Shown here: piece by piece, positions 12,291 to 58,037 of the stretch | How positions within the stretch are numbered: the first letter of the stretch is position 1 | Layout: the number at the start of each line of letters is the position of its first letter | Assembly (NCBI GenBank): GCA_043802525.1 | Contig: JAZDKY010000075.1 | Location: forward strand, 267 to 64,266 | Origin: a bacterium | GTDB taxonomy: Bacteria; Verrucomicrobiota; Kiritimatiellia; CAIVKH01 | Length of the DNA: 64,000 nt | Direction: 5' to 3' | Notes under the pieces: generated by a model | What the model was told of the DNA's origin: nothing | What the model saw: the letters and a program-made list of their open reading frames with translations, nothing else | Databases searched by the model: none | Translations under genes and position numbers: made by a program

Positions 12291-12392
12291 GGCAAATTTG
12301 TCACGAATACCGTAAGGAAATGTTCAGCAAAGGTAAATTTAATACTTGTGAATATCGTCGCAGACCGTTACAGGGCAAATGATTACATCGAC

Positions 12393-13931: not shown

Positions 13932-14039
13932 TTGTTTCAACCTGCGTTGAAGGTTGCGCCCTCCGGTGTCCAAGCTGGACGCTTTCGTAATTAGTCTCAC
14001 TGCAAAGAGTTATGACTTTGCCTGATCCGCGCTCCTTTC

Positions 14040-14056
14040 TGGCATGGCACCTGCAT
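14040..14056 (+). promoter_or_regulatory. Putative sigma-54 promoter (-24 TGGCAT, -12 CTGCA), 30 nt upstream of the KTSC-ssb operon
   Basis: CTGGCATGGCACCTGCATTT has GG and GC at the canonical 10-nt spacing. It lies immediately downstream of the bEBP gene. Confidence 0.4.
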
Positions 14057-14084
14057 TTACATCCGCGCGAATGAAGGGAGTGTC

Positions 14085-14426
14085 ATGAAGAGTCGTTGGA
14101 TCGTGGTTAGCGTGTTTGGTCTGCAACTGGCCCTTGCCGGTGACGGTCTGGCACACGAGCCATGGAAGCCGGAAGAGGGGGACCTCGTCGCGATCGTGTC
14201 GACCGTGTTCGAGTCAGCCCTTTATGAAGAAGAAGCGAAGGTGCTGGTGGTCACGTTCCGTGGCGGGAGGAGCTACGAGTACTACGGGGTGACTGCGGGC
14301 GTGTATCAAAACCTGTTGAGAGCTGAACACAAAGGAAGGTACTTCAATGCGCACATACGAAATGTCTACGAATGCGAGCGGATCTCAAACCAAGCGGGTG
14401 GCGGAAGGACCGATGGGGGCGGCTGA
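14085..14426 (+). CDS. KTSC-domain protein with signal peptide
   Basis: AIVSTVFESALYEEEAKVLVVTFRGGRSYEYYGVTAGVYQNLLRAEHKGRYFNAHIRNVYECERI matches the KTSC domain consensus. Confidence 0.6.
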   Translation: MKSRWIVVSVFGLQLALAGDGLAHEPWKPEEGDLVAIVSTVFESALYEEEAKVLVVTFRGGRSYEYYGVTAGVYQNLLRAEHKGRYFNAHIRNVYECERISNQAGGGRTDGGG

Positions 14427-14856
14427 CCAGGGCAATCACAAGAAACGTGCGGGCCGGAATTCGATCAACCTCGTGTTTCTGTCGGGCAACCTGACGCGGG
14501 ACCCGGTGCTGCGCCGGACCAGTTCCGGTGTCGCCCTCGCGGATATGGGGCTTGCGTTGTCCGATTCGTGGAGCAACCGGAACGGCGAGAAGGGCGAGTC
14601 GGTCTGTTTTGTCGACGTCATCGTGTGGGAACGGCAGGCGGAGGCCTGCGCGCAGTATCTGGCCAAGGGTTCGCCGGTCTTCATCGAGGGGCGCCTGCAG
14701 TTTGACGAGTGGACCGACAAGGAGGGAGCCCGCCGGAACAAGGTCAAGGTGCGCGCCGAGCGCGTCCAGTTCCTGGGCCATCCGAAATCAACCGCCGCGG
14801 GTGCGGACGTTGACGATGTGGAGGACGACGCGCCGCCGGCGAAAACGCGGCGATAG
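14412..14856 (+). CDS. ssb: Single-stranded DNA-binding protein
   Basis: INLVFLSGNLTRDPVLRRTSSGVALADMGLAL...VIVWERQAEACAQYLAKGSPVFIEGRLQ is an OB fold, and there is an acidic tail DDVEDDAPP. RBS GGAAGGA; start MGAADQ. Confidence 0.8.
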
Positions 14857-15094
14857 TTTGTGCTGACAGGTGAATGTGAGCGCCCCCTGCCGGCTTGTCC
14901 GGCAGGAGCGCCAGGTTGCTGATGGCCGCGCAGACGCAGCCATCAGGAACCGCGTTCACCCGCCTTCGCCGGCTTCGGCGCGGCAGGCTGAGCGGGGCGG
15001 CTACAACAGACAGGCGGCCGCGAAATTTGTTAACCCGCTCTGGCTCGCCGGGTTTCAAGTGCGTATTCCGGCTGGGCCGGGGGGGGGGTAGCCC

Positions 15095-17743: not shown

Positions 17744-19864
17744 TCATCCATGCTGTTGAGCCTTGGGCGCGGTGTGAGCGGACGGATCGACAAGCCGATT
17801 CTTCAGCCGTGTGATCAGGCCAGGCCGGGACGCGAGACGCCCCGTCTTCTGTTCCCGCAGCCATCGTGTCAGTCTTATGCCCAGATGTGCCGCCACGTCC
17901 GCGCGCTCTGCAAGCCGGTTGACGGTATCAAGCTGCACGTCGCGCAAATCGAAAAGCGCCCGGTCACGCGGCTTCCAACTCCATTCGGGCGAGACGTGAT
18001 GAGCCCGAACCGCGTGGATTAGTTTGTCGTTGCCTGACACGATGGAGTACGCGACTTCCTGGAGATCGACGGCGAAACTGTCATGCGGAGGGATCGGTTG
18101 CCCCGATGCAATCTCTGTCCACCGGCTCGCGCCGTCGAGGCGCGGTGGAACGGGTAGTTCCAGCGCCTGCAGGATCGTGGGGAAGAGATCGATGATGTCC
18201 ATGATGCCGTCGATGGTGGTTCCGGCCTGCGCCCGCCCCGCGGCCGATTTGATGATCAGCGGCACGCGCAGGACCTGTTCGGCCAGCAGGTGGTGATGGA
18301 AATGGATGCCATGTTCGCCGAATAACTCCCCGTGCGGTGACGTGACAACGATCGTGGCGGACTCGTAAAGTCCGCGTTCCTTGAGTGCCGCGATGATCTT
18401 GCCGACCTGATCGTCGAGATGGCTGACGCACCCCCTGTACTGGCACACGGGATAGCGGTAGTCCACGATGCCGTCGAGCCACGCGAGAATGTCCTTCTCG
18501 ATTTCCCGCACCTGGGGCAGTAGTCCCTTGAGCCATTCAAGCAGGGCGGCGGGTATGATGCCTTCATCGAGCGCGCGAACCTGGTCTGCGAGCCACACGG
18601 TGAATTCCGTCCTTGAACGTCCGTTCATGGCGGGCGCTCCAAGCGACTGGATGTGTGCCGCAAGATCAGGTCCGTGGGGAATCTTTCCCTGGAAGCATTC
18701 AACAATGCCGCGCAGGCGCTCGTGCAGGAAGGTGTCGATCACCCCTCTTTCCAGCATAGGCACGCCGAGAAGTATCTCCTGAACGCCTTCAATGCCTCGT
18801 ACCTTGGTGATGGCCTCCGGCATGAACTCGTTGCGGGGGTTGGACGGGTCACCCTGATAGTACATGGATCGGTACGGCTCCGGTGGCGTCGCCGGAGGAT
18901 GCGTGTCGAAGAACTCAACCCATGCGAAACAGGATTGGTCCGGACGGCGGTCGAGCCATTGGATGAACTGGCGCGCCGTGATCGATCCGTCCTGCGCGGG
19001 CCTGGCGAGGCAGGGAATCTGCTCATCAAACTGTTGAACAAATCCGGGCCCCTTGTCTCCAACCTCGGCCTCGCTGGCCGCGATCAGGGTGTGGAATCCG
19101 CAGGAGTGCAGGAGCGCCGGCAGACTCATGACGCCGGAGGGAAACGTGGACCATTCCGACAACGTACCGAGCCGCAGTGGATGGACGCCCGTCAGCATTG
19201 CGCAGTACGATCCGGCCGTGGCCCCGGTATGGGCCCGCGCGTGGCGGAACAGCGCGCCGTCGCGGGCCAGCTGGTCGAGGTGCGGCGTGCGCACCTCCGC
19301 GTTGCCGTAGCAGCCGAGAAAGTCCGGTCGGAGCGCGTCCGACGTGATGAACAGGACGAGCGGGTAGGACGGCGGCCGCGCCGCGCGGGTCTGCTCGATC
19401 ACTTCGTCCGTGACGCGGGGTTCGGCCCAGCCCGCCCAGCAATAGTCCGCCGCCGCGCCGGCGGGCGCGCTGGTTTGAAAGATCAGCGAAACGTCTTCGT
19501 GCGCGAGAGAGGTGAGATCGACGTCGAACTCGCGCCACCGGCGATGGTCCGCCCGGTTGCGCGGATCCAATTCCATGGAAAAGACGACGCGCGCCGCCTG
19601 TTCGCGGTCGCGGACCAGGACGCGGAATGTGACGGGCGATGCCATCCGCGTCCAGCAAACCTGTTTCAGCCCGCACGAGAACGCGAGGCGCGGGTGATGA
19701 CCGAGTCGCATCGGCTTGAATTCAACCGTGGAGTCGGGGTGCTGAAACAGCGCCATCCGCGAATCGCGCAGGAGGGTCATCGGCTGGACAGCGACGTGGT
19801 GGGGACCTGGTGAAGTGACGTCAGCCGTGGCGAGGTGATCGATCAGGTGTGTCGTTCGTGTCAT
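17744..19864 (-). CDS. Sulfatase-like hydrolase/transferase (alkaline-phosphatase superfamily); non-canonical active site
   Basis: LVLFITSDALRPDFLGCYGNAEVRTPHLDQLARDGALF is sulfatase-like. The CxPxR FGly motif is replaced by GSYCAMLTG. Confidence 0.6.
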   Translation of the reverse strand: MTRTTHLIDHLATADVTSPGPHHVAVQPMTLLRDSRMALFQHPDSTVEFKPMRLGHHPRLAFSCGLKQVCWTRMASPVTFRVLVRDREQAARVVFSMELDPRNRADHRRWREFDVDLTSLAHEDVSLIFQTSAPAGAAADYCWAGWAEPRVTDEVIEQTRAARPPSYPLVLFITSDALRPDFLGCYGNAEVRTPHLDQLARDGALFRHARAHTGATAGSYCAMLTGVHPLRLGTLSEWSTFPSGVMSLPALLHSCGFHTLIAASEAEVGDKGPGFVQQFDEQIPCLARPAQDGSITARQFIQWLDRRPDQSCFAWVEFFDTHPPATPPEPYRSMYYQGDPSNPRNEFMPEAITKVRGIEGVQEILLGVPMLERGVIDTFLHERLRGIVECFQGKIPHGPDLAAHIQSLGAPAMNGRSRTEFTVWLADQVRALDEGIIPAALLEWLKGLLPQVREIEKDILAWLDGIVDYRYPVCQYRGCVSHLDDQVGKIIAALKERGLYESATIVVTSPHGELFGEHGIHFHHHLLAEQVLRVPLIIKSAAGRAQAGTTIDGIMDIIDLFPTILQALELPVPPRLDGASRWTEIASGQPIPPHDSFAVDLQEVAYSIVSGNDKLIHAVRAHHVSPEWSWKPRDRALFDLRDVQLDTVNRLAERADVAAHLGIRLTRWLREQKTGRLASRPGLITRLKNRLVDPSAHTAPKAQQHG

Positions 19865-21113
19865 GCCCGTGTCGCACCTCCATCAGAAGGCCCAGCATTT
19901 CCTCCGCGTGTTGATCCATACTTTTCATGGGAACCGGCGCGGGGTCAAGCGTGCCGACGCGTGGAACGGCATCGCGCAAGGCGGAGGTCCACGCCGGAAC
20001 ATCGCCCGCAGGCGCCAGCCAGCCGGTCTGGTAGCCGCGCAGCATCACCGGGAGCGACCCGAGGTTGCTGGCCAGGATGGGCAACCCGATGTGCAGAGCC
20101 GCCTTCATAACCAGGGGTTCGTTTTCGAACCACAGGGCGGGCACAGCCAGAAGGTCGGCTTCATCGAGCACCGTCGCCGTGCGCTCGGGCGGGAACGCGC
20201 CGCGGAAGTGGATCCGCGGATCGCCGGAGGCAAGCACCTTGAGGCTTTGCGTGTACTCGTCTTTTCCGTCCGCGGCTCCGTGAATCAGGCATTCGATGTC
20301 CAGTTCGGGCGCGCGAAGGACCGCTTCGACGAGGACATGCGGACCTTTGTGCCGCGCGAGACTCCCGATGAACGCGACGCGGACGGGCCTGGCGGCCCGT
20401 CGCGCGCGGGTCATGAGGCCGGTTGTGTCGAGACCGTGCGGGATCACCTCGATCCGCCCCGGCGGATACCCGTGTTCGACGAACCGCTGTTTCTGAAACC
20501 CGCACAGCGCGATGATGCGGCTGCAACGGAGCAGGGCGTCGCGCAGATAGGGATTCCGGGCACGGATAGCCGGGGCGTCCTGGTCCGTGGAAAACCCGTG
20601 TGTGGCCTTCAGGCAGGGCGCGCAGTACAGGTCGTGTTCCGGGCCGCGGCAGAGTGAGCCATCCCACTTCAGGAGCGTGTGGCGCGGGCAGATGTACCAA
20701 AAGTCGCAGAGCGTCGCTACCACAGGCGCTCCGGCCGCGTGGCAGGCGTCCAGCGCCGAGCCGGAGAGTTTCATGGTGTGCACGGCGTGGACCACATCGG
20801 GCCCGAACGAGGCAATCTCGCGCCGGATCGCATCGCCCAGGAAGGCATTATCGAATTCAAACCGGGCCGGATCGGGTGCGACGCTGAGGTTGTAGTGCAG
20901 TTCCGTCACGGGAATGCCGTCGACCTCGATCTCGCGCGGGCCGAACGCATCCGGGTCGCCGGACGGCGACTCGACCGCGGTGACAATGCGGAGCTCGTGC
21001 CCGCGCGAACGGGCCCGCGTCGCGACGCCGCGCACATACATTTCCGTTCCGCCCACGTGCCGGGGGAAATACTGATGTGTCAGGTAGAGAATCTTCACGA
21101 AGTGGACCCCCAT
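19821..21113 (-). CDS. GT4-family glycosyltransferase
   Basis: Start at MGVHFVKILYLTHQYFPRHVGGTEMYV. C-terminal GT-B motifs ENEPLVMKAALHIGLPILASNLGS. The ORF upstream of 21113 overlaps blaI on the other strand and was trimmed. Confidence 0.7.
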   Translation of the reverse strand: MGVHFVKILYLTHQYFPRHVGGTEMYVRGVATRARSRGHELRIVTAVESPSGDPDAFGPREIEVDGIPVTELHYNLSVAPDPARFEFDNAFLGDAIRREIASFGPDVVHAVHTMKLSGSALDACHAAGAPVVATLCDFWYICPRHTLLKWDGSLCRGPEHDLYCAPCLKATHGFSTDQDAPAIRARNPYLRDALLRCSRIIALCGFQKQRFVEHGYPPGRIEVIPHGLDTTGLMTRARRAARPVRVAFIGSLARHKGPHVLVEAVLRAPELDIECLIHGAADGKDEYTQSLKVLASGDPRIHFRGAFPPERTATVLDEADLLAVPALWFENEPLVMKAALHIGLPILASNLGSLPVMLRGYQTGWLAPAGDVPAWTSALRDAVPRVGTLDPAPVPMKSMDQHAEEMLGLLMEVRHGHDTNDTPDRSPRHG

Positions 21114-25048: not shown

Positions 25049-25687
25049 TCAGACTTTGAAGGCCGACGGGCAGAGGTCGTTCACGGAGCAGCCGGCGCAG
25101 TTCGGTTTACGGGCGAAACAGCAGCGGCGGCCGTGCCAGACGATGCTGTGCGACCAGGTGGTCCAGTCCTTCTCGGGCACAATCTCCCGAAGATCGAATT
25201 CGATTTTCACCGCATCGGTGTGTTTTGTGAAGCCGAGCCGGCCGGCGAGGCGTGTCATGTGCGTGTCGACGACGATGCCGGGCCGGTTGAACCCCGAGGC
25301 CATGAGCAGGTTCGCGGTCTTGCGGCCGATGCCGGGCAGCTCGCACAACGCGTCGAAATCGTCCGGGACCTTGCCGCCGAACTTCTCGTCCAGCACCGCA
25401 CACAGGGCGCGGATGTTCTTCGCCTTGTTGCGGAAAAAGCCGGTGGAGCGGATCTCGTTTTCCAGCGTCGCCTGGTCGGTCCCGGCCCAGGCTTTCGCGG
25501 TCCGGTACTTCTTGAACAGCGCGGGCGTGACCATGTTCACCCGCTTGTCGGTGCACTGCGCCGAAAGAATAGCCCCGATCGCCAGCTCGAGTACGTTGGA
25601 ATAGTCGAGCTCGCAGCGGGCGTCGGGGTAGGTCTTCTTGAGGCGCTTCAGGATTTCCAAGGCGCGTTTCTTGAGATCTCCGGCCAT
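25049..25687 (-). CDS. nth: Endonuclease III
   Basis: HhH-GPD LPGIGRKTANLLM, catalytic K, and the C-terminal 4Fe-4S cluster CCFARKPNCAGCSVNDLC. Confidence 0.9.
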   Translation of the reverse strand: MAGDLKKRALEILKRLKKTYPDARCELDYSNVLELAIGAILSAQCTDKRVNMVTPALFKKYRTAKAWAGTDQATLENEIRSTGFFRNKAKNIRALCAVLDEKFGGKVPDDFDALCELPGIGRKTANLLMASGFNRPGIVVDTHMTRLAGRLGFTKHTDAVKIEFDLREIVPEKDWTTWSHSIVWHGRRCCFARKPNCAGCSVNDLCPSAFKV

Positions 25688-25757
25688 TGAGGTTTCAGGT
25701 GTCAGGTTTCAGGTGTCAGGGCAGCGTTTGCTGACACCTGACACCCGACACCTTCTT

Positions 25758-27884
25758 CTACTTCTGCTCCGCGGGCGCAGCAGCAGCGGCCTGCTGGTCC
25801 ATCTCCTCCATCGCCGCGCGGCGGCTGAGGCGGACGCGGCCGGTGTCGTCAACGTTGATGCACTTGACCCACATCACGTCGCCCATCTTGCAGATGTCGC
25901 TGACGGCCTTCACGCGGAAGTTCGCCATTTCGCTGATGTGGACGAGGCCTTCCTTGCCGGGCAGGATTTCGACGAACGCGCCGAACTCCTTGATGCTCGT
26001 CACGGTGCCCTGGTAGAGCTTGCCGACTTCGGCATCCGCGGCGACGAGGTTGACCTCGCGCACGGCGGCGTCCATCGCCTTCGCGTCGACCGCGAAGATC
26101 TTGACGGTGCCGTCGTCCTCGATGTCGATCTGGGCGCCGGTCGCGTCGGTGATGCGGCGGATGTTCTTGCCGCCCGGGCCGATGAGGGCGCCGATCTTCT
26201 CCGGGTTGATGTGGACGACCGTGATACGCGGGGCATACGGGGACAGCTCGGCGCGGGGTTCCGCGATGGTCTTCGCCATGAAGTCCAGGATGTTGAGCCG
26301 CGTCTTGCGCGCCTTTTCAAAGGCGCCTTCGACGAGGTCCCAGCGCAGGCCGCGAGTTTTCAGGTCGACCTGGAAACCCGTGATGCCGTCGCGCGTGCCG
26401 GCGACCTTGAAGTCCATGTCGCCGCAGTGATCTTCCGCGCCGAGGATGTCGACGACCAGTTCCGCCTTCTGGGCGTTGCTGAACAGGCCGATCGAGATGC
26501 CCGCGACGGGTTTGGTGATCGGGATACCCGCGTCCATCAGCGCCAGCGTGCCGGCGCAGATCGAGGCCATCGAGGAGGAGCCGTTGGACTCCATGATTTC
26601 GGAGACCAGGCGGACCGAGTACGGGTAGTCCTTCGGGATGACCGGGAGGAGCGAGCGTTCGGCCAGGTTGCCGTGGCCGATTTCGCGGCGGCTGGTCGAG
26701 CCGAGGCGGCCGGCTTCACCGACGCTGTACGGCGGGAAGTTGTAGTGCAGGAGGAAGTTCTTTTCCTTCGGGCCGCCCGCGATCGCGTCCAGGTCCTGGA
26801 CGTCGTCGCTGGTGCCCAGCGTGACGATGGCCAGCGCCTGTGTCTCTCCGCGCTGGAACAGCGCCGAGCCGTGCGTACGCGGGAGCAGGCCGACCTGCGC
26901 GTCGAGAGCGCGGAGTTCGTCGAATCCGCGGCCGCCGATGCGGAACTGCTGTTCCAGCACGAGCTTGGTCGTCGATTCGATTTCGAGCTCGTCGAAGATC
27001 TGGAAGTATTGTTCCTCGGTCGTTTCTGGCAGCGCGGCGACCACCTTGGCCTGCAGCGCTTTCTTGAGCTCGGACACCTTGTCCTGGCGTTCGAGTTTGC
27101 CGTTGATCTTGAGCGCCTCGACGAAGTCGGCGCCGCCGAGTTCGCGGACCTTGTTGAGCAGGGCGTGGTCGACCGCGGCTTCCGCGACGACCTTGGCGTC
27201 CTTGCCCACGAGCTTGCGCAGTTCAACCTGCGCGTCGCACAGCGGGACAATGTGCTGGTGGGCGAACTTCATCGCCGCGACCATGTCCGCCTCGCTGATC
27301 TCGCGCGCATTACCTTCGATCATGATCGGCAGGTCGCGGGACCCGGCGTAGATCAGGTTCAGGTCGCTCTTCTCGAGATCCGCGTGTGTGGGGTTGATGA
27401 TGAACGTGCCGTCGACTCGGCCGACGCGGGCCGCCGCGATGGGGCCGTGGAACGGGATTTCAGAGAGCATCAGCGCCGCGCTGGCCGCCGTGATGCTCAG
27501 GATGTCGGAGTCGTTCTCGCCGTCCGCGCAGAGGAGCAAATTATTGATCTGCACGTCGTTGCGGTGGTTGGACGGGACGAACGGGCGCAGCGGGCGATCG
27601 GTGACGCGCGCGGTCAGGATTTCCTTTTCCGACGGACGCGCCTCGCGCTTGAAGTAGCCGCCGGGGAATCGGCCGGCCGCGTAGTATTTTTCGCGGTATT
27701 CGACCTGGAGCGGGAAGTAGTCGACGCCTACGCGCGGCTTTTTCGTGGTGGTGACGGCGGAGAAAACGATCGTTTCCCCGAGCTGGACGGTGACGGCGCC
27801 ATCGGCCTGTTTGGCGAGGAGCCCGGATTCGATCCGGATGACCTTGCCGCCGACGTTAACTTCTACGAATTTTGCGTTCTTCAT
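25758..27884 (-). CDS. pnp: Polynucleotide phosphorylase
   Basis: Start [21 protein letters not shown] with RBS AGGAAG. Two RNase PH domains, KH and S1 ([20 protein letters not shown]). Confidence 0.95.
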
Positions 27885-28086
27885 ATGTCTTCCTGTGTTG
27901 CCCGGTTCGAGGTCACGCGGAGCGTGACCCTCCCGCCTTCGTTTCAATCGCGTCGCGCGCGATTTCAACTACGGCGTGGCTCGCCGTAGCTTGCCGAAGC
28001 GGAGGCGGCCGGAGGGACGCGCAAAGCGCGGCCGTTGCGTTGAAGAAAGACACTCCGAAAAATCGTGGCTGGCGGAGAGGGCAGGA

Positions 28087-45471: not shown

Positions 45472-46590
45472 TTACGGCAGGAACTTCCCTTTCTTCAGTT
45501 TCTCGGGCAGGTAGTGGTCCAAAACGAAATTCAGGCCGTGTTTGGCGAAGGCCTGCTGCTCGATGCGGACGCCGAGCTTGAGCATATGCTCGAGGGCGTG
45601 CTGCCATTCCTTGTGGTGCCGGATGAAGGGGTCGTTCTTCAGCGCGTCCTTCGCGCGTTTGATGTCGGCTTCTTCGAGCGGGTGTGTCGCATCCTCGAGT
45701 TTGTAGTCCGCGATGTCCTGCGGTGTGACACCGAGGTAGTGGACCTGCGGCACGCAGAAGAACCGGTTGATGTGCGCGGCCTGGCCGGAGCCGACCTTCA
45801 GCGTGCGGTAGATGTTGCAGTAGCCGTACGGGTCGCCGTCGGTGAAGGCCAGCACCGGCACCTTCTGGTCGTCCGCCAGCCGGCGGATGAAACGCCTGCA
45901 CGCGCGGGTCGGCACACCGCTCATCGAAATGAGAATGCAATTTGCCTTCTCATAATATCGGTGATGGACGAGGCGCTGGAAGAGCGACGCGGTCTCGACG
46001 GTGAGGATGAGCTTGGCCTTCGTCTGGAACCGCAGGTGCTCGACCCGCGAGGGGATGCTCCACGCGCCCGTGCCGAGCTTCGTGCAGTCGATCTTGATGT
46101 CCTTGCCCGTGGCGGGATCGCGGTCGATGACGACAAGCGGCCCGCACACGTCGCCGCCGCGCTCCTCGGGAATGTAGCCGAGCTGCTCGCGGTTGATCCC
46201 GAGCATCGCCTCGATGTCGTCCAGCAGCGTGTCGCTCTCCGGCTGCTCGTTGAACCGGCACTCACCCCAGCTCTTGCTGTTGTAATAAATCTCGCGCTTC
46301 CCCGCGATGTCGTCCTTGTCGAGCAGGTCGTTCTTCGTCGTCGACAGGAGCCGCATCGACTGCGCGAACGTCTTGACCGTGTTGTACGAGAGCGTCCGCG
46401 TCGCGACCTTGTTGAGGATCTCGAAATGCCCGCGCTTCGTGTCGTACTTCACGTTCGCGAGCGAGCGGATCGGGAACCGCATCGACGGCTTCCGTTTCTT
46501 CTTGATGATGTCGGTGTGGATATCGCCCGCCACGTCGACGATCTTCCTGGACGCGGCCTGCTTGGAAATGACTTCGGGTGCTTCAGCCAT
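45472..46590 (-). CDS. top6A: DNA topoisomerase VI subunit A (Spo11/Top6A)
   Basis: Catalytic-Tyr region GKREIYYNSK. Toprim E in LILTVETASLFQRL. DxD in VLAFTDGDPYGYCNIY. RBS AGGAGT; start MAEAPEV. Confidence 0.8.
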   Translation of the reverse strand: MAEAPEVISKQAASRKIVDVAGDIHTDIIKKKRKPSMRFPIRSLANVKYDTKRGHFEILNKVATRTLSYNTVKTFAQSMRLLSTTKNDLLDKDDIAGKREIYYNSKSWGECRFNEQPESDTLLDDIEAMLGINREQLGYIPEERGGDVCGPLVVIDRDPATGKDIKIDCTKLGTGAWSIPSRVEHLRFQTKAKLILTVETASLFQRLVHHRYYEKANCILISMSGVPTRACRRFIRRLADDQKVPVLAFTDGDPYGYCNIYRTLKVGSGQAAHINRFFCVPQVHYLGVTPQDIADYKLEDATHPLEEADIKRAKDALKNDPFIRHHKEWQHALEHMLKLGVRIEQQAFAKHGLNFVLDHYLPEKLKKGKFLP

Positions 46591-46609
46591 GGTATTACTC
46601 CTGATTTTT

Positions 46610-46740
46610 GACCGCAGAGGACCCGCCTTCGCCAATGACTACGGCGAGGCAAGCGCAGAGGCGCGCGGAGGTTCGGAAGTTCTCGGAAAACCTCTGCGCA
46701 TCTCTGCGTCCTCTGCGGTTCAATTCTCCCCCATTCAACC
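46610..46740. repeat. MITE-like element with (CTCTGCG)n / CGCAGAGG inverted termini and core CCCGCCTTCGCCAATGACTACGGCGAGGCAAGC
   Basis: The core motif CCGCCTTCGCC..CTACGGCG..CAAGC recurs at 42725-42780 and 45262-45300. The right arm recurs at 57990-58030. Confidence 0.55.
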
Positions 46741-47543: not shown

Positions 47544-47870
47544 CTCTTAATCGTAATCTTAATCGTACTCGTAATCGTAATCATGATTAGCGCTCGTCGC
47601 CGGTCACATACGCAGCACCGTCCTCGTGCACCCGCCATGCCGAATTGCTCCTGATCAAGCCGGCCGGCATGGAAACAACGGCAAGGAGTCTTTATTCCCC
47701 TCGTGCAACGAGTTCAATGCAGGGGTTGTAGATATTCAGTTTCTCGTGGTCGAAGAGCTGTAGCATGAGGGGTGCTTCTGATGTGATTACGATTAGGATT
47801 AGGATTACGATTACGATTACGATTACGATTACGATTACGATTAGGATTGGGGCCGAGATTAGGATTATGA
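47541..47870. mobile_element. Hexanucleotide-repeat-armed element (left arm (CGTAAT/CTTAAT)n 47545-47585; right arm (GATTAC/GATTAG)n 47775-47862) enclosing a deleted four-helix-bundle gene remnant (47692-47769, minus strand, MLQLFDHEKLNIYNPCIELVARGE*)
   Basis: The arms are inverted tandem hexamers. The internal sequence CGTCCTCGTGCACCCGCCATGCCGAATTGCTCCTGATCAAGCC... aligns with the 55576-55650 junction of the intact copy. The remnant N-terminus aligns with MNSKPLFDHEKLEVYQLSIEF of the 55587-55982 gene. Confidence 0.6.
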
Positions 47871-48588: not shown

Positions 48589-48850
48589 ATGTTGCGCGAA
48601 GCCGGTGAAACTGTCGGAATTCATTACAAGTTTACACTTTCGCCCTTCCGCGCAGTGGTTGACCTGTCGAAAAGAATCACCTCTTATAACTTCCAAGGGA
48701 GCGGGTTACGGAAAGACGCATGAAAACGGTAGCCCGGTGGTGTGATATCTGCTGGCTGTGGCGCCGAGTCTATGCGTGCCATTGATGTGCGTTTGACGGA
48801 TCAAGCAATCTCAACATGAGGAACGAACCATGAGAGCCTACGGGAAGACC

Positions 48851-49504
48851 ATGCGGCTGATACCCTGCATCATCGCCATGCTAGCCATCGCCACTGTGCC
48901 GGCCATGGGCATTCCATGGATCAACGAATTCCATTATGACAACGTCAGCACCGACGTCGGCGAGTTTATTGAAATCGCCGGCGAGGCGGGGACGGACCTG
49001 TCGGATTACACCCTCTACCTTTACAACGGCACGGGCGGCGCGGTCTACGACACGCTCGCCCTCTCCGGTGTGTTGGCCGACCAGCAGAATGGGTTTGGCA
49101 CGCTGGCGTTCGATTATCCTGTGAACGGCATTCAAAACGGACCGTCGGATGGTTTCGCCCTTTTCGACAGTGACTCAGCGACGGTGATCCAGTTCCTCAG
49201 CTACGAGGGGTCGTTTACGGCAGTGGATGGCGTGGCCATCGGTCTCACCAGTACGGATGTTGGGATTGCCGAAACGACGCCAACTCCCGTCGGTCATTCG
49301 ATGCAACTCACGGGCACCGGAAGTCATGCGAGCGATTTCACCTGGTCGGGTCCCTTGGCGGCGACGAAGAACGGCGTCAATGCAGACCAGCAGTTCACAT
49401 GCGTGTCGGTCCCGGATTTCACGCCGACCTTGGGCATCCTCCTGCTCGCGTTGGCGGGGATGAGCGCGTTTCGCAGGCTCCCGGCAGGCTCACGCAGCGG
49501 TTGA
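48851..49504 (+). CDS. Secreted lamin-tail-domain (LTD) protein with a PEP-CTERM-like C-terminal anchor
   Basis: Signal peptide. INEFHYDNVSTDVGEFIEIAG..DLSDYTLYLYNG is LTD-like. C-terminal VPDFTPTLGILLLALAGMSAFRRL resembles a PEP-CTERM sorting signal. Confidence 0.55.
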   Translation: MRLIPCIIAMLAIATVPAMGIPWINEFHYDNVSTDVGEFIEIAGEAGTDLSDYTLYLYNGTGGAVYDTLALSGVLADQQNGFGTLAFDYPVNGIQNGPSDGFALFDSDSATVIQFLSYEGSFTAVDGVAIGLTSTDVGIAETTPTPVGHSMQLTGTGSHASDFTWSGPLAATKNGVNADQQFTCVSVPDFTPTLGILLLALAGMSAFRRLPAGSRSG

Positions 49505-49689
49505 CGCGAAGTCTGCTCCGCTGCCCCCGTCACTCATCTCATCGGTCCGTTGCGCTCCTGGGCCGTTGCCGTTGCCGGGCCTGCGAGCAGGCGAACCACG
49601 AGGGGCCCATGCGCCCGGTCGTTCTCGGTTTGCGTTGCGCCCTGATGGCGGTCATATTTCCTCAGGAGCGCCTGCGAGAGGAGGCGGTT

Positions 49690-50502
49690 GTGTCCCACAA
49701 GAACCACGACAAAGACGATGCGCACAAAGGGCTGCGCAAAAAGGATTACGAGAAGGAGTTGGCCAAGCTTCAACTCGAGCTGGTCAAGTTGCACGAATGG
49801 GTGCGGCACAAAGGCATGAAAATCGTTGTCCTCTTCGAGGGACGCGATGCCGCGGGCAAGGGCGGCGTGATCAAGCGGATCAGCCAGCCCCTCAACCCTC
49901 GCGTCTGCCGCGTCGTCGCGCTTGGCGTGCCGACGGAGCGTGAAAAGACGCAGTGGTATTTCCAGCGCTACGTGCAGCATCTTCCCGCTGCGGGCGAGAT
50001 GGTGTTGTTCGACCGCAGCTGGTACAACCGCGCGGGCGTCGAACGCGTCATGGGTTTCTGCACCGAGGAGGAATACCAGGAATTCCTGCGGGCCTGCCCC
50101 GAGTTCGAGCGGATGCTCATCCGTTCCGGCGTCATCCTTATCAAGTACTGGTTCTCCGTCAGCGACGAGGAGCAGGAGCAACGGTTCCAGGCCCGCATGG
50201 AAGACCCGACGAAACATTGGAAGCTGAGCCCGATGGATGTGCAGTCGCGCTCGCGATGGATCGACTACTCCAGGGCCAAGGACGTGATGTTCGCACACAC
50301 GGACACGAAACTCTCGCCCTGGTTCGTGGTGGAGGCCGACTGCAAGCGGCGCGCGCGGCTGAACTGCATTGCCCACCTGCTGAGCATGATTCCGTACAAG
50401 GACGTGACGCCGGTGCCGATCAAGCTTCCGCCCCGCCAGCCGCGCAAGGGTTACGAACGCCCGCCAAAGTCGGATCAGACCTACGTGCCCGAGAAATACT
50501 GA
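49690..50502 (+). CDS. ppk2: Polyphosphate kinase 2 (start assumed GTG with RBS GAGGAGG; alternative ATGs at 49609 or 49645)
   Basis: LELVKLHEWV..KIVVLFEGRDAAGKGG (Walker A), FDRSWYNRAGVERV, the lid-loop region and the overall PPK2 length. Confidence 0.8.
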   Translation: MSHKNHDKDDAHKGLRKKDYEKELAKLQLELVKLHEWVRHKGMKIVVLFEGRDAAGKGGVIKRISQPLNPRVCRVVALGVPTEREKTQWYFQRYVQHLPAAGEMVLFDRSWYNRAGVERVMGFCTEEEYQEFLRACPEFERMLIRSGVILIKYWFSVSDEEQEQRFQARMEDPTKHWKLSPMDVQSRSRWIDYSRAKDVMFAHTDTKLSPWFVVEADCKRRARLNCIAHLLSMIPYKDVTPVPIKLPPRQPRKGYERPPKSDQTYVPEKY

Positions 50503-50546: not shown

Positions 50547-50915
50547 ATGCGATCACCCATCAATGTTCTCTTCGTCTGCGGACGCAACAACCGGCGCAGT
50601 CCGACCGCCGGGAGGATCTTCAAGCGCGACCGTCGCATGAACATCCGCGCGGTCGGTTTGGGCGACACCAGCCCGCGGCGGGTGAAGGAAGCCGACCTGC
50701 GCTGGGCCCACCTCGTGCTCGTCGTGGAACGGAAGTACGCCGGCCGCCTTCGGACGGCCTTTCCAAACGTCGACCCGTTCCCGCCCATCGAATCCCTCGA
50801 CATCTCCGACGAGTACACCTTCATGCAGCCCGAACTGGTGGACCTCCTGAAATCCAGCGTGGCATCCGCGTTGGAGACCTATTACGAAGACCGGGTGGGC
50901 GATGGTTCTCCTTAG
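50547..50915 (+). CDS. Low-molecular-weight phosphotyrosine-phosphatase/ArsC-like small protein (CX5R(S) P-loop); paralog of 54657-55055
   Basis: VLFVCGRNNRRSPTAG is the LMW-PTP CX5R motif. Only about 120 aa long. Confidence 0.55.
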   Translation: MRSPINVLFVCGRNNRRSPTAGRIFKRDRRMNIRAVGLGDTSPRRVKEADLRWAHLVLVVERKYAGRLRTAFPNVDPFPPIESLDISDEYTFMQPELVDLLKSSVASALETYYEDRVGDGSP

Positions 50916-51204: not shown

Positions 51205-51771
51205 ATGAACGTGATCCGGTCAGCCCGGGAACGGCGCGGCTATTCGCAACGGGAACTGGCGAAACGGGCTGGTGTTTCGTTCCGCTGCGTCCAGCAATTG
51301 GAACGTCCCGGGCACAACTGGAGCGTCTCGAGCCTGAAGCGTGTCGCCCGAGCCCTGGCCGTGCCCGCGGGAGGGTTGCGCTATCACTTGGACTATCCCT
51401 TTAGAATTCCGCCCGATTCGATCGAGGACATTTCGCTGCGCATCCATGGCGAGGAGTTTTCCTCGTGGAAGCTTCACGTGTTCAACTTCGTGGACCGTTT
51501 CCGGGCGACGCGTGACCCGGACCTGATCGCCAGGCCGCCCATGCCGGAACTGGACCCGCGCCTGCACGCCTTGTTGGCCGGCGTGGTGGAAACGCTCTGC
51601 GCGGAAATCGATCGGTCGGCGCCGTCCTGGTGCGCCGGGATAGATACACTTCCCGAGCCGTGGTTCGTCGCCGGTATTGAGAACCTGAAGCCCGCGGCGC
51701 TCGTTGAATCGCCGGTTCGTTTCAGGACGCGGAACATCTTCGTGCTGGGGAACTTCCTGGAGAGGGCATAG
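51205..51771 (+). CDS. XRE-family HTH protein with an uncharacterised C-terminal domain
   Basis: N-terminal RRGYSQRELAKRAGVSFRCVQQLE. The 130-aa C-terminal domain has no recognised motif. Confidence 0.6.
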   Translation: MNVIRSARERRGYSQRELAKRAGVSFRCVQQLERPGHNWSVSSLKRVARALAVPAGGLRYHLDYPFRIPPDSIEDISLRIHGEEFSSWKLHVFNFVDRFRATRDPDLIARPPMPELDPRLHALLAGVVETLCAEIDRSAPSWCAGIDTLPEPWFVAGIENLKPAALVESPVRFRTRNIFVLGNFLERA

Positions 51772-52451: not shown

Positions 52452-54290
52452 TCAGCGCAGTCGGCCGCGGGATACCCAGTCCTTGCGCGGGAAAGCGTGA
52501 AAGATCATGCGGCTATCCTCCTCGCGCACGAGGATGCGCGCTTTACCGCGCTTCAGCTTGCGCCAGTAGAAGCCGCTGATGGATTCGTGCGGCAGAAGAG
52601 CTCGCGTGACAGGTGACATGGACGCGTAGTAGTCGAGGGCGCTGGTCAGACTTTCGGCCGGAATCGGAAGGGTGGGGAGATGCTCGCGTATCCAGCTTGA
52701 CGTGTCAGTCCCGGGGCTATCGTCGTTCCACACAAGGATTTTCGCCTGTGCAAGGCCGTGTCCAGGGTCCCGCACCATGTGCCACACGCGTACCACGGGG
52801 GCGGCCGGTTCGGGGGGCAGGGGCGTCGCGTCGTCCTCCGCCAGATCGAGATGCTGCTCGATCGTCCTGGAGACCTCCGGCTCCGGCGGCAGGTGGAGAT
52901 CGAAAATCGACACGGTTTGGCCGGCGGCCTGTGTGCATCGGCAAAGAAAATCCAGATTCTCCAGCATGAAAGGTTCGGACCACTGCTTCCAAAGTTGGCG
53001 AATCAGCGCGCTCTGGTCGTCATTCAGCGGAACGAAGGGCGTATCCGGGCGCATGTTGGACAGCGATATTTCCTCGGCCACCATCCGAAGCACCTGCGCG
53101 TCCGGCGCGTTGTCCAGCGCGGCCTGGGTAAAAAGACGGCGGGTTCCGGCGTGATGGGGCCCGCGCAGATAGGGCGCGATGTGGCGTGACAGCGCCGTCC
53201 TCGTTTTCTCGCCCTCGCGCGTCACGGGCATGCGGATGAGCTTCGAGGGATGGTTGAGCATGTCGGCGAGGAGCGGTCGCACCCAGGGTTTGAGCCTGTC
53301 GCCTGAAATCCCGTCCGTCCGGGCGAGTTCCTGAAACAGAGCCACGTACCAGAAGCATTCGCTGGTGGAGATCATCCCCGCAGCTTCATCCGACATGTTG
53401 TCGGCAAGGGTGTACCGTTCCCTTTCTTTCCGGGCGAGACCTCTCAGTTGAGTGCACATGTTGGTGCGCATCTTCGCCAGGAGGAGGAATACGTGAAAGT
53501 CCATGGCTGTTTTCTTCGGATCCAGTGCCTGATCGAGCGTCTCGAACAGAAAAGTTTCCGTCATTTCCACGCGGTGGACGATCTGGTTGTAGCCTTCCGC
53601 GGCGTCGCGGAAGATCGGCATCAGCGTCTCCATGCGATGCCGGGCCTCGACGAGCAAGGCGTCCAGCGATTCGGCTGGATCCTCGACATCCAGGAGCAAA
53701 ACGGCCGCGTCATCGGAGAAGGGCAGGACCAGCAGCAGGATATCCCGCGGGGCGAGCGTGGGCGCGAAGTCCTCGGCGAGTTCCATGATAAAATCAGGAT
53801 TGCAGGCAAAAGCTGTCAACAGCGGGCTGTTGGCGGTCAGCGTCATACTGCGGCGGAACTGGTCCAGGCAAATCCGCTCCCTGTCCTTGTCGTCATCGAG
53901 CAGGGCGGAGATGGCGTCAATCGCATCAAAACCGAACCGGTCGATATGGTATTTGATTCCTCCGCACCAATGGAGAAAGTCGCGTAGGGCGTCCGACGAT
54001 GCGACGTCCCGGGCCCGTGCCAGGTCAAATACCTTGGCGACCGTTGAAAGCAGTGTCAGGTCCGATTCGGCATAGACCAGGTCATCGCCGGTCCCGAGCC
54101 ACTCGACCATGGCGGCGCGAAACCGGGTTTGGATTTTCAGCGACTTGGGCGACGCCAGCCAGGCTTGGAGGCGCCTCCGGCTCTCCGCGTAGCCGGCCAG
54201 TGCCCTGCTGACGTGTTCAGCCCCATACCGGGCCGACGAGAATGCCATTGGCCACGGCTGGATAAAAGTGGGTCGTGGTTTCTTGCTCAC
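52452..54290 (-). CDS. Hypothetical 612-aa cytoplasmic protein, no recognisable domain
   Basis: Long ORF with protein-like composition and no TM or signal peptide. No catalytic motif recognised by eye. Confidence 0.4.
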   Translation of the reverse strand: MSKKPRPTFIQPWPMAFSSARYGAEHVSRALAGYAESRRRLQAWLASPKSLKIQTRFRAAMVEWLGTGDDLVYAESDLTLLSTVAKVFDLARARDVASSDALRDFLHWCGGIKYHIDRFGFDAIDAISALLDDDKDRERICLDQFRRSMTLTANSPLLTAFACNPDFIMELAEDFAPTLAPRDILLLVLPFSDDAAVLLLDVEDPAESLDALLVEARHRMETLMPIFRDAAEGYNQIVHRVEMTETFLFETLDQALDPKKTAMDFHVFLLLAKMRTNMCTQLRGLARKERERYTLADNMSDEAAGMISTSECFWYVALFQELARTDGISGDRLKPWVRPLLADMLNHPSKLIRMPVTREGEKTRTALSRHIAPYLRGPHHAGTRRLFTQAALDNAPDAQVLRMVAEEISLSNMRPDTPFVPLNDDQSALIRQLWKQWSEPFMLENLDFLCRCTQAAGQTVSIFDLHLPPEPEVSRTIEQHLDLAEDDATPLPPEPAAPVVRVWHMVRDPGHGLAQAKILVWNDDSPGTDTSSWIREHLPTLPIPAESLTSALDYYASMSPVTRALLPHESISGFYWRKLKRGKARILVREEDSRMIFHAFPRKDWVSRGRLR

Positions 54291-54354
54291 GAGTGTGCTG
54301 CATAGCCGGTCCGCCGCTCCATTTCAAGCCGGCGATTCGGAGAGGCGGGTACGC

Positions 54355-54490
54355 AGGTCGGATGGTCACGAAGACGCACCGGCCTTCGCCCCGCCTCGGA
54401 GGCGGGACTTCGGTGAGGCAAGCAAGAGAAGGCCGCCCTTGGAACCCGGGGATCTCTTCTTCGTGCTTCTTGTGCCTCTTCGTGGCTATC
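54355..54490. repeat. MITE-like element, homolog of the 29790-29975 copy
   Basis: TCACGAAGACGCACCGGCCTTCGCCCCGCCTCGGAGGCGGGACTTCGGTGAGGCAAGCAAGAG...CTTCTTCGTGCTTCTTGTGCCTCTTCGTGGC. Confidence 0.6.
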
Positions 54491-54656
54491 TCTGTTGCTG
54501 CTTTACTGTTTCTTCCATTTGGACGGATATGAGGCAGGCTTGCCCTCATGAACCATCATCAATGTGCCACGTGCCCCGTCCCGCCTTGGCGGGCAAGTGT
54601 GACGCGGCTACAGGCAAACATTTAACGCCTTGGCGGGATCTGCTACGCTCCGGTTC

Positions 54657-55140: not shown

Positions 55141-55575
55141 GGATGTATGTCCTCCGCCTCGTAATCCTAATCCTAATCGTAATCGTAATCCTAATCGTAC
55201 TCGTAATCGAATATCCTCGTGCCGCCATGGCCGGTATCGGAGAGTGCAGAGCGGTTATGGCCCGGAGTTTCGATTTCGATTACGATTAGGATTACGATTA
55301 CGATTAGGAATCAGATGTAGACATGGGCCTTGTCGAGCATCCTCTTCAGAGTGCTGACGAGTCTTCGACTCGTCTTTGTCCTTCAGGTCGAGGGCGAGGT
55401 GGGGGGCTATGTCCTCCGCCTCGTAATCCTAATCCTAATCCTAATCGTAATCGTAATCCTAATCGTACTCGTAATCGAATGTCCTCGTGCAGCCATGGCC
55501 GGTATCGGAGAGTGCAGAGCGATTATGGCCCGGATTTTCGATTACGATTACGATTACGATTGGGATTACGATTGG
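55141..55575. repeat. Two tandem units of about 170 bp (55141-55310; 55421-55575), each hexamer inverted arms (CGTAAT/CCTAAT)n ... (GATTAC/GATTAG)n around a 65-bp core, separated by a degenerate copy of the topoisomerase VI-B 3' end (55316-55415)
   Basis: The units are over 90% identical. The core reads GAAT[AG]TCCTCGTGC[CA]GCCATGGCCGGTATCGGAGAGTGCAGAGCG. The 55316-55415 segment aligns with 56109-56215 (shared TCCTTCAGGTCGAG, TCGAGCAT; translates LDLKDKDE.. against LDLKEKDEDRIVKDLKKMLEKTHLEV). Confidence 0.7.
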
Positions 55576-55586
55576 GAGGGCAAGCC

Positions 55587-55982
55587 TCATCCCCACGTTG
55601 CGCTGTCTTCATGAACGCGCATGGGCGAATTGCTCTTGATCAAACCAACAAGCATGGAGACGATCCGCGCCAGCATGACCTTGCCCTCGACGATTGCATC
55701 TGCATCCACTTTCCTTTTCGCGACGAGAACGTCGAGACACGCCGCGCATTCCAACGCCGATCCTCGCGCTATATCGAAAAAGCGACACCGGTCGTTTTCA
55801 GTGTAGCGGCCATTGCCTTCAGCCGTGTTCAGCGGAATGGAGGTGGAAGCCCGATCAATATTGTCGCGCGCAGCAAGCGTACGCGGGACATCAGCTACGA
55901 TGGGTTCTAGCCAGGCGATGAATTCGATGGAGAGTTGGTAGACTTCGAGCTTTTCGTGGTCGAAGAGAGGTTTGGAATTCAT
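55587..55982 (-). CDS. Four-helix-bundle protein (TIGR02436 / 23S rRNA intervening-sequence protein family)
   Basis: 131 aa. FDHEKLEVYQLSIEF...IPLNTAEGNGRYTENDRCRFFDIARGSALECAACLDVLV is the family signature. Confidence 0.75.
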   Translation of the reverse strand: MNSKPLFDHEKLEVYQLSIEFIAWLEPIVADVPRTLAARDNIDRASTSIPLNTAEGNGRYTENDRCRFFDIARGSALECAACLDVLVAKRKVDADAIVEGKVMLARIVSMLVGLIKSNSPMRVHEDSATWG

Positions 55983-56059
55983 GGTCTTCCCTCCGTTTCG
56001 TAATCGTACTCGAATTCCGTTCCTGCCGCTCCGTTCGGTGGTGAGGGACGTAGGGCGTT

Positions 56060-56106
56060 TATACTTCTGATATTCGATTACGATTACGATTACGATTACG
56101 ATTACG
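56060..56106. repeat. (ATTCGATTACGATTACG...)n hexamer array, right arm of the element, abutting the top6B stop codon
   Basis: ATTCGATTACGATTACGATTACGATTACGATTACGAATCAG. Confidence 0.7.
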
Positions 56107-56108
56107 AA

Positions 56109-57875
56109 TCAGACTTCCAGATGCGTTTTCTCGAGCATTTTCTTGAGGTCTTTGACGATCCGATCTTCATCCTTTTCCTTCAGGTCGAGAATCTGCCTCA
56201 ATCCCAACGCAAGGTGCGGGATGTAGAGCTCGATGTAGTTCTTCTTCCTCGCTTCCTCCAACTCGCGGTTGCGTTTGTGGAGGAAGACGGACAATCGCCG
56301 ACCGCATTCCTGCAGGCCTAGTGTGATCTCATTGAGGATTTCCTGGTAGCTGGCGAGGGCGTCCTTGCTCTCGCTTGTGAACGGGACCCAGACGCTGGCC
56401 ATGTGGATCATCAATACGACCGGGCCTTGCGGCAGCCCGTCTCTGGGCTGGTTCAGGCCGTACGATTTCCAGTTTACGCCGCACGTCGCTTTCGTGATCG
56501 CGCAGGCGCCGGGCTGGTAGAGCAGAGGAACCCGGTTCGCAAATCGCAGCAGCCGCACGGGCTCTTCCTTGCCCATGTCCTGGTCGGTATTTTCCGAGGG
56601 TCGCGTGTACGCGACGCCGATCTCGATCTGAAACGGGTTGCCGCGGTAGACCGACGGGTCGCGCGTGAGGGACGTGAAAAAGTCGGCTTTGAATTCTTTC
56701 TGCAATCCCGCAAGAATCTGTGTCTCGCCAATCGGCGACAAACAGTCCGTTGGTGGCCGCATCAACTTCGTTTCCTGGATCGCCTTGTACAAGGCCTCGG
56801 CTTCCTGGTGCGCGACGCGGGTCGGGTTCGCTTTCGGGTTCAGGCCGGCGCGTTCGCAGATCTGCAGCGCGGTGCCGGTACTGACGCGGGAGAAGTCGGT
56901 CGACAACGCCCCGCGCAACGTGCGCGATTCGGAGTCCTTCAACATCTGCATCAGCATCCCGATCTCCACGCCGTGCGGATGCGGCATGATCTCCTGCGCC
57001 GGCAGCGGGACCTGTTTGGTGGCACGGAGGTAGGTGATGCGGAGTTCTGCTTTTGCTGGTTTTTCATCCGATGTAGGCCGCGTGACCCCACGCGGCGCGG
57101 ACCCCGCCGGGTCGGCGACCCGGCCTACAACGAGACGGTAGTGCAGCGTCACATGCGGGTTCACGATCGCGCACTGCTTCACGAATTCGTCGACGGACTG
57201 CTTGCCCCGCTGGTACGCGGCTTCCATGTCGATCGAGACACACGTGCCGTGCTTGTACGTGGAGGCTTCCCCGTCCGATTTCCCTTCCGCGTTCACGGCT
57301 TGGAACGTCGGCAGCCACTCGGCTTCCTCGTCGGTCAGGATGGTAGGCTTATTCTGGCGCGTATCGATCTGCACGGCCATGGAATGCGCCTTCTTGCTGC
57401 CCGAAATCTTCGACAGGATGCGCGTCGACGAACCGGTCGTGAGCTGGCCGTACATGCCCGCTGCGCTGATGCCGATGCCCTGCTGGCCGCGCGACATGCG
57501 GAGGCGGTGGAATTTCGAGCCGTAGAGCAGCTTCGCGAAAATCTTCGGGATCTGGCTCTTCACGATGCCGGGCCCGTTGTCGGTGATCGTCACGCGGAAC
57601 CGGCTCTCGGAAATCTGTTCCAGGTCGATGGAAAGTTCGGGGAGGATGTGGGCCTCCTCGCATGCGTCGAGCGAGTTGTCGACCGCCTCCTTGACCGCGG
57701 TCAGCAGCGCGCGGCGCGGGCTGTCGAACCCGAGCAGGTGCCGGTTCTTGAGGAAGAATTCCGAGACCGATATGTCGCGCTGCCGCGCGCCCATGCTCTC
57801 GGCGGTCTCGACCTTCGGTTCCTTCTTCGGCTTCGGTGCCGGGGCTGGAGGGGACGGTGTGGGCGCTTTCTTCAT
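56109..57875 (-). CDS. top6B: DNA topoisomerase VI subunit B (GHKL ATPase)
   Basis: Bergerat-fold motifs EAVDNSLDA (N box), ITDNGPGI (G1), KLLYGSKF, SRGQQGIGISAA (G2), followed by H2TH and transducer regions. Start MKKAPTPSPP. Confidence 0.85.
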   Translation of the reverse strand: MKKAPTPSPPAPAPKPKKEPKVETAESMGARQRDISVSEFFLKNRHLLGFDSPRRALLTAVKEAVDNSLDACEEAHILPELSIDLEQISESRFRVTITDNGPGIVKSQIPKIFAKLLYGSKFHRLRMSRGQQGIGISAAGMYGQLTTGSSTRILSKISGSKKAHSMAVQIDTRQNKPTILTDEEAEWLPTFQAVNAEGKSDGEASTYKHGTCVSIDMEAAYQRGKQSVDEFVKQCAIVNPHVTLHYRLVVGRVADPAGSAPRGVTRPTSDEKPAKAELRITYLRATKQVPLPAQEIMPHPHGVEIGMLMQMLKDSESRTLRGALSTDFSRVSTGTALQICERAGLNPKANPTRVAHQEAEALYKAIQETKLMRPPTDCLSPIGETQILAGLQKEFKADFFTSLTRDPSVYRGNPFQIEIGVAYTRPSENTDQDMGKEEPVRLLRFANRVPLLYQPGACAITKATCGVNWKSYGLNQPRDGLPQGPVVLMIHMASVWVPFTSESKDALASYQEILNEITLGLQECGRRLSVFLHKRNRELEEARKKNYIELYIPHLALGLRQILDLKEKDEDRIVKDLKKMLEKTHLEV

Positions 57876-58037
57876 AGGGGCACAGCGTAGTTTCCAACGA
57901 TTGGAAAAATCACGAAGAAAAGTTCCAAGCGTTGGAAGAAATTGAACCACGGAGGGAAGAGGAGGTTCTGGAGACCGGGCTCGCCATTCCCCAACCTCCG
58001 CGAACCTCTGCGCCCTCTGCGGTTCAAATTGATGCGG

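Follow-up and report, generated by a model that had tools for sequence, protein, structure and literature searches.

The 64,000-nucleotide stretch analysed here (the window; positions 267 to 64,266 of contig JAZDKY010000075.1, from a bacterium of the Kiritimatiellia) carries a gene, here called gene X, whose 612-amino-acid (aa) product belongs to a rare, unnamed bacterial family. The conserved tail of this protein probably has a fold like that of the RelE/ParE toxins. As the best explanation we propose, tentatively and at somewhat less than even chances, that X is a self-contained, self-regulated RelE/ParE-like effector. An earlier reading, made from the sequence alone, had described the gene as an orphan without recognisable domains, carried by a repeat-bracketed island and perhaps active in defence or signalling.

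Gene X is intact and has relatives

The DNA of the window has about 61% GC, and long open reading frames (ORFs) arise in it by chance, such as one of 495 aa antisense to the gene for topoisomerase VI subunit B (top6B). For this reason the GC content of the three codon positions was determined. In gene X it is 0.64/0.45/0.76 and stays constant across all 100-codon windows. This is a coding-type pattern, as in the reference genes top6B (0.59/0.43/0.80) and carbonic anhydrase (0.68/0.41/0.83); the 495-aa chance ORF gave 0.83/0.46/0.60, and the antisense ORFs have about these values.

The product is identical to the NCBI entry 'MAG: hypothetical protein V1929_06250 [bacterium]' (MAG, metagenome-assembled genome; 67,954-bp contig). 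The frame is undisrupted and aligns with a 619-aa relative, P0002, in a single high-scoring segment pair. Thus, gene X is a real, intact gene with host-like composition, complete from its GTG start. That the ORF arose by chance or from a decayed fusion of pseudogenes, as the long chance ORFs of this DNA might suggest, is effectively refuted by the composition over the entire length of the gene, by co-linear full-length relatives down to 25% identity and by a confident co-evolution-based structure model (below). The relatives are themselves intact, not frameshifted fragments.

Searched exhaustively with phmmer, 1.84 billion cluster representatives yielded 66 relatives at E ≤ 1e-3, 33 of which reached E ≤ 1e-10. 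Most are 560–635 aa long and co-linear with X. The closest, P0002, shows 43% identity along its whole length, followed by P0003 (32%), P0005 (30%) and P0004 (28%). X is therefore no orphan; it belongs to a rare family. Its 90%-identity clusters were singletons in 9 of the 10 cases examined, mostly with one contig each, and wherever a checked cluster has a source name, that name is 'hypothetical protein'.

The loci that carry a taxon label come from Victivallales, Lentisphaerales and Nibricoccus, that is, from Lentisphaerota or Verrucomicrobiota MAGs of the Planctomycetota–Verrucomicrobiota–Chlamydiota (PVC) group; few loci could be assigned. A locus scan with a subset alignment, A3, yielded only 3 + 3 loci, its search pattern being narrow. 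A word-indexed homolog search of 5.8 billion proteins returned only X itself or fragments, and with tblastn no relative was seen among 72,556 plasmids and 50,697 phage records. The claim that X has no recognisable domain held for the profile libraries: Pfam, NCBIfam, PADLOC and PHROGs contained no family match, so that no well-known family can be assigned at significance. A sequence search of the Protein Data Bank (PDB) gave no match either.

A Nibricoccus sp. MAG (5.09-Mb contig; locus L007, 9698-10258) has a 186-aa ORF corresponding to the last ~170 residues of X, at the place where locus L010 has a full-length X homolog. P0058, of equal length, suggests that the conserved motif is intact in this ORF, which represents either a naturally truncated gene or a free-standing form of the tail domain.

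A probable RelE/ParE-like tail

Alignment A1 (40 family members) was the input for an AlphaFold (AF2) model of X with a predicted local distance difference test score (pLDDT) of 88.8 and a predicted template modelling score (pTM) of 0.71. It superseded a single-sequence model, which was unusable (pLDDT 37). The pTM value suggests a defined arrangement of the domains in the model. Residues 1–470 are modelled as an all-helical body with several very long helices. In the tail, strands at 500–505 and 517–522 precede helices at 529–537, 545–557 and 560–564, and strands at 568–581, 584–591 and 594–601 follow. The predicted topology, beta-alpha-alpha-beta-beta-beta, resembles that of the RelE/ParE type II toxins (ParE_toxin, PF05016; E. 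coli RelE, M. tuberculosis RelE1, M. jannaschii RelE); compared with these toxins the domain has two additional N-terminal strands.

Conservation rises along the chain. The mean pairwise identity within the family is 13.5% for residues 1–300, 19% for 301–470 and 32% for 496–612, and for most relatives the alignment with the query begins only near residue 300. Nearly all positions that at least 80% of members share lie in the tail, where they form a basic/aromatic cluster at 576–605, with few earlier ones (W314, P348). The family motif of the tail reads W.KLKRG..RILVR.E..G.L.FH.Y.RKDW. Within it K578, R581, R585 and R602 are invariant; W576, K580, G582, I586 and W605 (Y in some members) are nearly so, and H598 is conserved in at least 80% of members.

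It was this motif that gave rise to the RelE/ParE idea, before any structure or profile test. RelE/ParE toxins have the core pattern 'G.yRiiY ... hRk..Y', and by our reading X parallels it with G..R[IV][ILV], which opens strand 3, and R-K-D-[WY] after strand 4.

Foldseek with the full-length model found nothing significant. Its sole compact-domain matches in the PDB were RelE toxins, at modest scores: 9g12_B, the M. tuberculosis RelE1 (probability 0.63; target-normalised TM score 0.42), and 3bpq_B, the M. jannaschii RelE. In an independent library, BFVD, the compact matches were the 98-aa protein H9YQY0 (probability 0.89; target-normalised TM score 0.47; root-mean-square deviation 4.2 Å) and a phage 'cytotoxic translational repressor' (probability 0.75), a name used for the RelE family.

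In profile searches ParE_toxin was matched by 1 of 38 family members (E 0.039) and by two family consensus queries (E 0.08–0.13), the latter covering profile positions 24–82 of 89 in the expected register. Library-wide these matches are at noise level; for one family named beforehand the per-model p is ~1e-6, or ~1e-3 after a correction that covers queries and related models. Additionally, hhalign set RKLKRGKARILV of X on IKLRSSGYRLVY of RelE, and RKLKRGKARILVREEDSRMIFHAFP of X on IKLRSSGYRLVYQVIDEKVVVFVIS of RelE, neither significantly (P=0.15; probability 1.4% against RelE alone). The RelE sequence used, 100% identical to 4v7k, stood with nine other sequences in this small alignment.

The active-site residues of RelE are K52, K54, R61, R81 and Y87. 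X residues K578, K580, R585 and R602 would correspond in place to the first four of these, and R581 and W605 would also occupy comparable sites, an equivalence that rests on the non-significant alignment. These results point to a RelE/ParE-like fold as the best-supported reading of the tail, and a probable one, given the model. Membership of the tail in the RelE/ParE family is not established.

A proposed self-contained effector and its main alternative

The mechanism that we propose has few parts. The C-terminal domain would belong to the RelE/ParE toxin fold class, and the cluster of invariant Lys, Arg and His residues might form a phosphate-binding or RNA-cleaving site comparable to the RelE active site. 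The helical body would hold this effector tail inactive, or target it, in cis; a trigger would then free the tail, which could lead to RNA cleavage and growth arrest. We suggest a self-contained protein because no partner gene is conserved: across 13 loci no conserved small ORF adjoins X, so that the pairing of a stand-alone toxin with an antitoxin was not found.

RelE/ParE toxins differ from X in several respects. They are ~90–100 aa long, as against 612 aa. Unlike them, X has no adjacent antitoxin gene and no profile score at threshold, and its family consists of single genes at lineage-stable chromosomal sites, absent from the plasmids and phages searched.

Single-chain toxin-antitoxin proteins have precedents in CapRel(SJ46) (PMC9712102), EzeT (PMC4826407) and HicA-domain fusions (PMC10865869). 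Judging from the model, X would share with them a toxin-type domain joined to a larger region able to neutralise or sense, with no partner gene. The toxin folds differ (toxSAS in CapRel, a zeta kinase in EzeT and HicA in the fusions, against RelE/ParE-like in X), and the order of CapRel is reversed, the effector of X being at the C-terminus. The accessory region of X, ~470 aa, is far larger than in any of the three; autoinhibition and an anti-phage role are hypothetical for X.

Polymorphic toxins may carry C-terminal RNase domains of the Barnase-EndoU-ColicinE5/D-RelE fold class (PMC3482391). X would share their layout, in which a long protein with a variable N-terminal part closes with a nuclease-type domain like RelE. 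Unlike them, X lacks any recognisable domain for secretion or trafficking; its N-terminus does not look like a signal peptide, and no immunity gene lies beside X. The protein looks cytoplasmic.

Conflict-type genes occur near several X loci (PIN, PemK, a large DNA methyltransferase, an integrase, CHAT), and a gene pair with an Xre-type helix-turn-helix (HTH) protein lies in the window. The role in defence or signalling offered by the sequence-only reading is still a guess. The tail supplies a lead towards conflict systems, PADLOC contributed nothing and the neighbourhoods are mixed.

A number of observations weigh against a toxic effector. The best ParE_toxin score is ~14 bits, with a cut-off of 23, and every other RelE/ParE score is sub-threshold too; NCBIfam had no match to the tail, and a PDB profile search with it gave 0 hits. 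No PADLOC defence model matched X. The C-terminal-only form in Nibricoccus speaks mildly against neutralisation in cis. These points, together with the missing plasmid and phage copies and the host-like composition, could also be read as signs of a non-toxic protein that some PVC bacteria inherit vertically and that binds nucleic acids or has a regulatory role. In such a protein the basic tail would bind RNA or DNA without being lethal, the likeness to RelE would be topological only, and a tail on its own is tolerated.

The loci lend this alternative further weight. Within lineages the gene order around X is stable (epimerase - X - deacetylase in L010 and L007; ~400-aa protein - X - large protein in L005 and L006). 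L005 and L006 are Victivallales and Lentisphaerales MAGs, in which X is 34% identical and the flanking genes 38% and 44%; X thus diverges about as fast as the genes beside it. On the other hand, the family is very thinly represented (67 clusters among the representatives searched), which is unusual for housekeeping. The best structural matches are all toxins, and the strictly conserved K, K, R, R, H and R look more like an active site than like a general binding surface. A non-toxic protein is thus possible, at something over one chance in four, and we keep the self-contained effector as our working explanation.

If the effector reading is right, X represents a new RelE/ParE architecture, in which a toxin-type domain of ~115 aa ends a helical protein of ~470 aa with no partner gene. 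The few known single-chain toxin-antitoxin proteins would gain a RelE/ParE type with candidate catalytic residues. Should the tail prove not to be a toxin, what is left is simply a rare, lineage-restricted family of hypothetical proteins. In either case, it comes from a poorly studied bacterial group and is not covered by current family libraries.

Neighbourhoods of the family

No neighbour of X is conserved in the 13 loci, and none of its neighbours in the window recurs at the locus of any relative. A tblastx comparison aimed at a conserved small ORF beside X returned GC-rich noise and lineage synteny only. The loci point to a solitary gene with vertical inheritance at lineage-specific sites and occasional loss. 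Table 1 lists the features of the window and the contexts of the relatives. In L012, the genes downstream of X may be an uncharacterised conflict-system cluster.

In L005 (3983-5281 and 8325-10805) and L006 (119-1318 and 3445-6528), two large families without Pfam match (~400–430 and 826–1027 aa) are syntenic with X; they are those with 38% and 44% identity.

Table 1. Gene X, its parts and its neighbours in the window, and the gene order around relatives of X in other loci (L numbers)
Feature	Position	Strand	Description	Evidence
Gene X, complete coding sequence	52452..54290	-	612 aa + stop codon, GTG start	ORF list, codon-position GC, NCBI identity
X residues 1-300	53391..54290	-	poorly conserved all-helical N-terminal region; long helices	high pLDDT
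X residues 301-470	52881..53390	-	moderately conserved helical module	motifs FWY..L (W314), HP....R..VP (P348)
X residues 471-494	52809..52880	-	predicted disordered linker	pLDDT <50 at 473-491
X residues 495-612	52455..52808	-	conserved C-terminal alpha/beta domain, RelE/ParE-like	motif, model, Foldseek
Region upstream of X	54291..54629	.	339 nt, shared divergently with LMW-PTP-like gene 2; presumed promoter	position only
LMW-PTP-like gene 1	50547-50915	+	~120-130 aa	Pfam LMWPc, sub-threshold
LMW-PTP-like gene 2	54630/54657-55055	+	~120-130 aa	Pfam LMWPc, sub-threshold
PPK2	49399-50502			
Xre-type HTH gene	51205-51771	+	188 aa, C-terminal 130 aa without family match	
orf195	51704/51776-52291	+	~171-195 aa, directly after the HTH gene	
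Topoisomerase VI subunit B gene (top6B)	56109..57950	-	upstream of X	Pfam Topo-VIb_trans 5.9e-55, HATPase_c
Topoisomerase VI subunit A gene (top6A)	45472..46635	-	downstream of X	Pfam TOP6A-Spo11_Toprim 7.7e-57, Topo_VI_alpha, TP6A_N
L002 context			PIN nearby; no topoisomerase VI	
L003 context			PemK pair downstream; no topoisomerase VI	
L011 context			CHAT protease upstream; no topoisomerase VI	
L012 context	11936-20403		downstream, on the same strand: unassigned 226-, 669- and 86-aa genes and a 1745-aa DUF3686/DUF7902 AAA-type protein; no topoisomerase VI	
L015, L016 context			aconitase upstream; no topoisomerase VI	translated fragment, by eye
L010/L007 common order			epimerase - X - 165-aa gene - polysaccharide deacetylase	
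L005/L006 common order			~400-aa protein - X - ... - 826/1027-aa protein; L006 also with integrase	

Topoisomerase VI genes around gene X

In the window, top6A and top6B are split by ~9.5 kb with some ten unrelated genes, and X lies among these on the strand of the pair. Topoisomerase VI is uncommon in bacteria. P0003, the only close relative with visible neighbours, also lies between the two subunit genes: the called genes of its contig run, on a single strand and never more than 35 nt apart, from top6B through a 91-aa UPF0758_N gene, an 847-aa N6/N4 DNA methyltransferase gene and the X homolog to top6A. Three genes thus separate top6B and top6A there.

ParE toxins act on DNA gyrase. By analogy, the position of X inside the subunit pair, the operon-like locus of P0003 and the ParE_toxin model as the best sequence-level match of the tail might point to a functional tie, with X as a ParE-like binding partner, regulator or poison of the type IIB enzyme. 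We consider this improbable. The ParE match is non-significant, and eight other informative contexts have no topoisomerase VI genes. An invariant Lys/Arg cluster, such as that of X, is also more typical of RelE-type RNases than of ParE. Slightly less probable still is the narrower version, in which X would be a ParE-like accessory factor or poison encoded inside a top6B-top6A operon.

Since other lineages show a different and equally stable synteny, the two topoisomerase VI contexts are most simply explained by shared ancestry within the closest subfamily. The place of X within a split pair in two distant genomes is a curiosity. If functional, it would connect type IIB topoisomerases with a toxin fold and provide the first toxin-like modulator of such an enzyme, in parallel to ParE on gyrase.

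Repeats around gene X and the island question

Inverted arrays of the hexamer (GATTAC)n/GTAATC occur at 47545-47848, 55159-55577 and 56000-56107 and nowhere else in the 64 kb (34 matches against 0.09 expected). They form strong hairpins, the segment 55140-55330 folding at -87.9 kcal/mol (z = -8.1), and include two tandem 268-nt copies that are 93% identical. They flank a gene for a 23S_rRNA_IVP (four-helix-bundle) protein at 55587-55982 and a remnant of another such gene at 47705-47757.

The sequence-only reading placed X between elements resembling miniature inverted-repeat transposable elements. The arrays do bracket the block of plus-strand genes and X, the largest gene between them; they do so loosely, 0.9 kb from one end of X and 4.6 kb from the other. 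It was also correct that X runs opposite to its immediate neighbours, as the HTH gene, orf195 and both genes resembling low-molecular-weight protein tyrosine phosphatases (LMW-PTP) are on the plus strand, and that the LMW-PTP-like genes and PPK2 flank it.

X might accordingly be cargo of a mobile or defence island, gained horizontally with these neighbours and bracketed by the hairpin repeats. The block interrupts the top6B/top6A pair, the HTH gene pair stands beside X, and integrase, PIN, PemK or CHAT genes occur near relatives. Several findings make such an origin unlikely and the earlier claim doubtful. The GC and codon-position pattern of X is that of host genes, its strand is that of the top6 genes, and no relative was seen in the plasmid and phage records. 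The block contains no integrase or transposase. The window neighbours of X recur beside none of its relatives, and P0003 keeps the order top6B - X - top6A in their absence. No evidence was seen that X arrived as cargo. Because P0003 has this order, X may have been there first, with the plus-strand genes arriving later.

The two LMW-PTP-like genes were also considered as the ends of an element. They are paralogous, as had been noted (70% identical in aa, 79% in nucleotides), and were rejected as terminal repeats because their similarity stops at the borders of the coding sequences.

Other features of the window

Both LMW-PTP-like genes retain the CX5R(S) phosphatase loop. They represent a short, divergent LMW-PTP/ArsC-like subfamily, as their LMWPc matches are sub-threshold and confined to the first 24–40 residues. 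The 339-nt upstream region contains no sigma-70-like consensus site, and Rfam, promoter and terminator scans around X were uninformative.

The orf195 product had no match in Pfam, NCBIfam, PADLOC, PHROGs or PDB; its motif GG...(S/T)KDVD looks nucleotidyltransferase-like by eye. Together with the HTH gene, orf195 may form a toxin-antitoxin-like pair that is undescribed so far and runs convergently to X.

Three sets of matches to X were set aside. A full-length PDB profile search returned only designed helical repeat proteins, which we dismissed as compositional. Foldseek matches of the helical body to transporters, JetA, MukB/SMC and tape-measure proteins (TM score ≤ 0.15) were regarded as long-helix noise. 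The match of an X consensus to fvmX5 (PF20003; E 0.03) is below threshold and stands without other support.

A 224-aa protein without Pfam match (48830-49504, plus strand) has a C-terminus that by eye resembles a PEP-CTERM sorting signal (VPDF..., then hydrophobic residues, then RR).

Overall, the structure prediction and the phyletic and neighbourhood checks recommended by the sequence-only reading were the right way forward.

Antisense ORFs overlap real genes at two places in the window: 25638-27989 (plus strand, 783 aa) against 25758-27968 (minus strand), and 56403-57890 (plus strand, 495 aa) against top6B. Codon-position GC identified 25758-27968 as the coding ORF of the first pair and the 495-aa ORF as spurious. 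Such misleading frames are a caution against length-based ORF calling in this genome.

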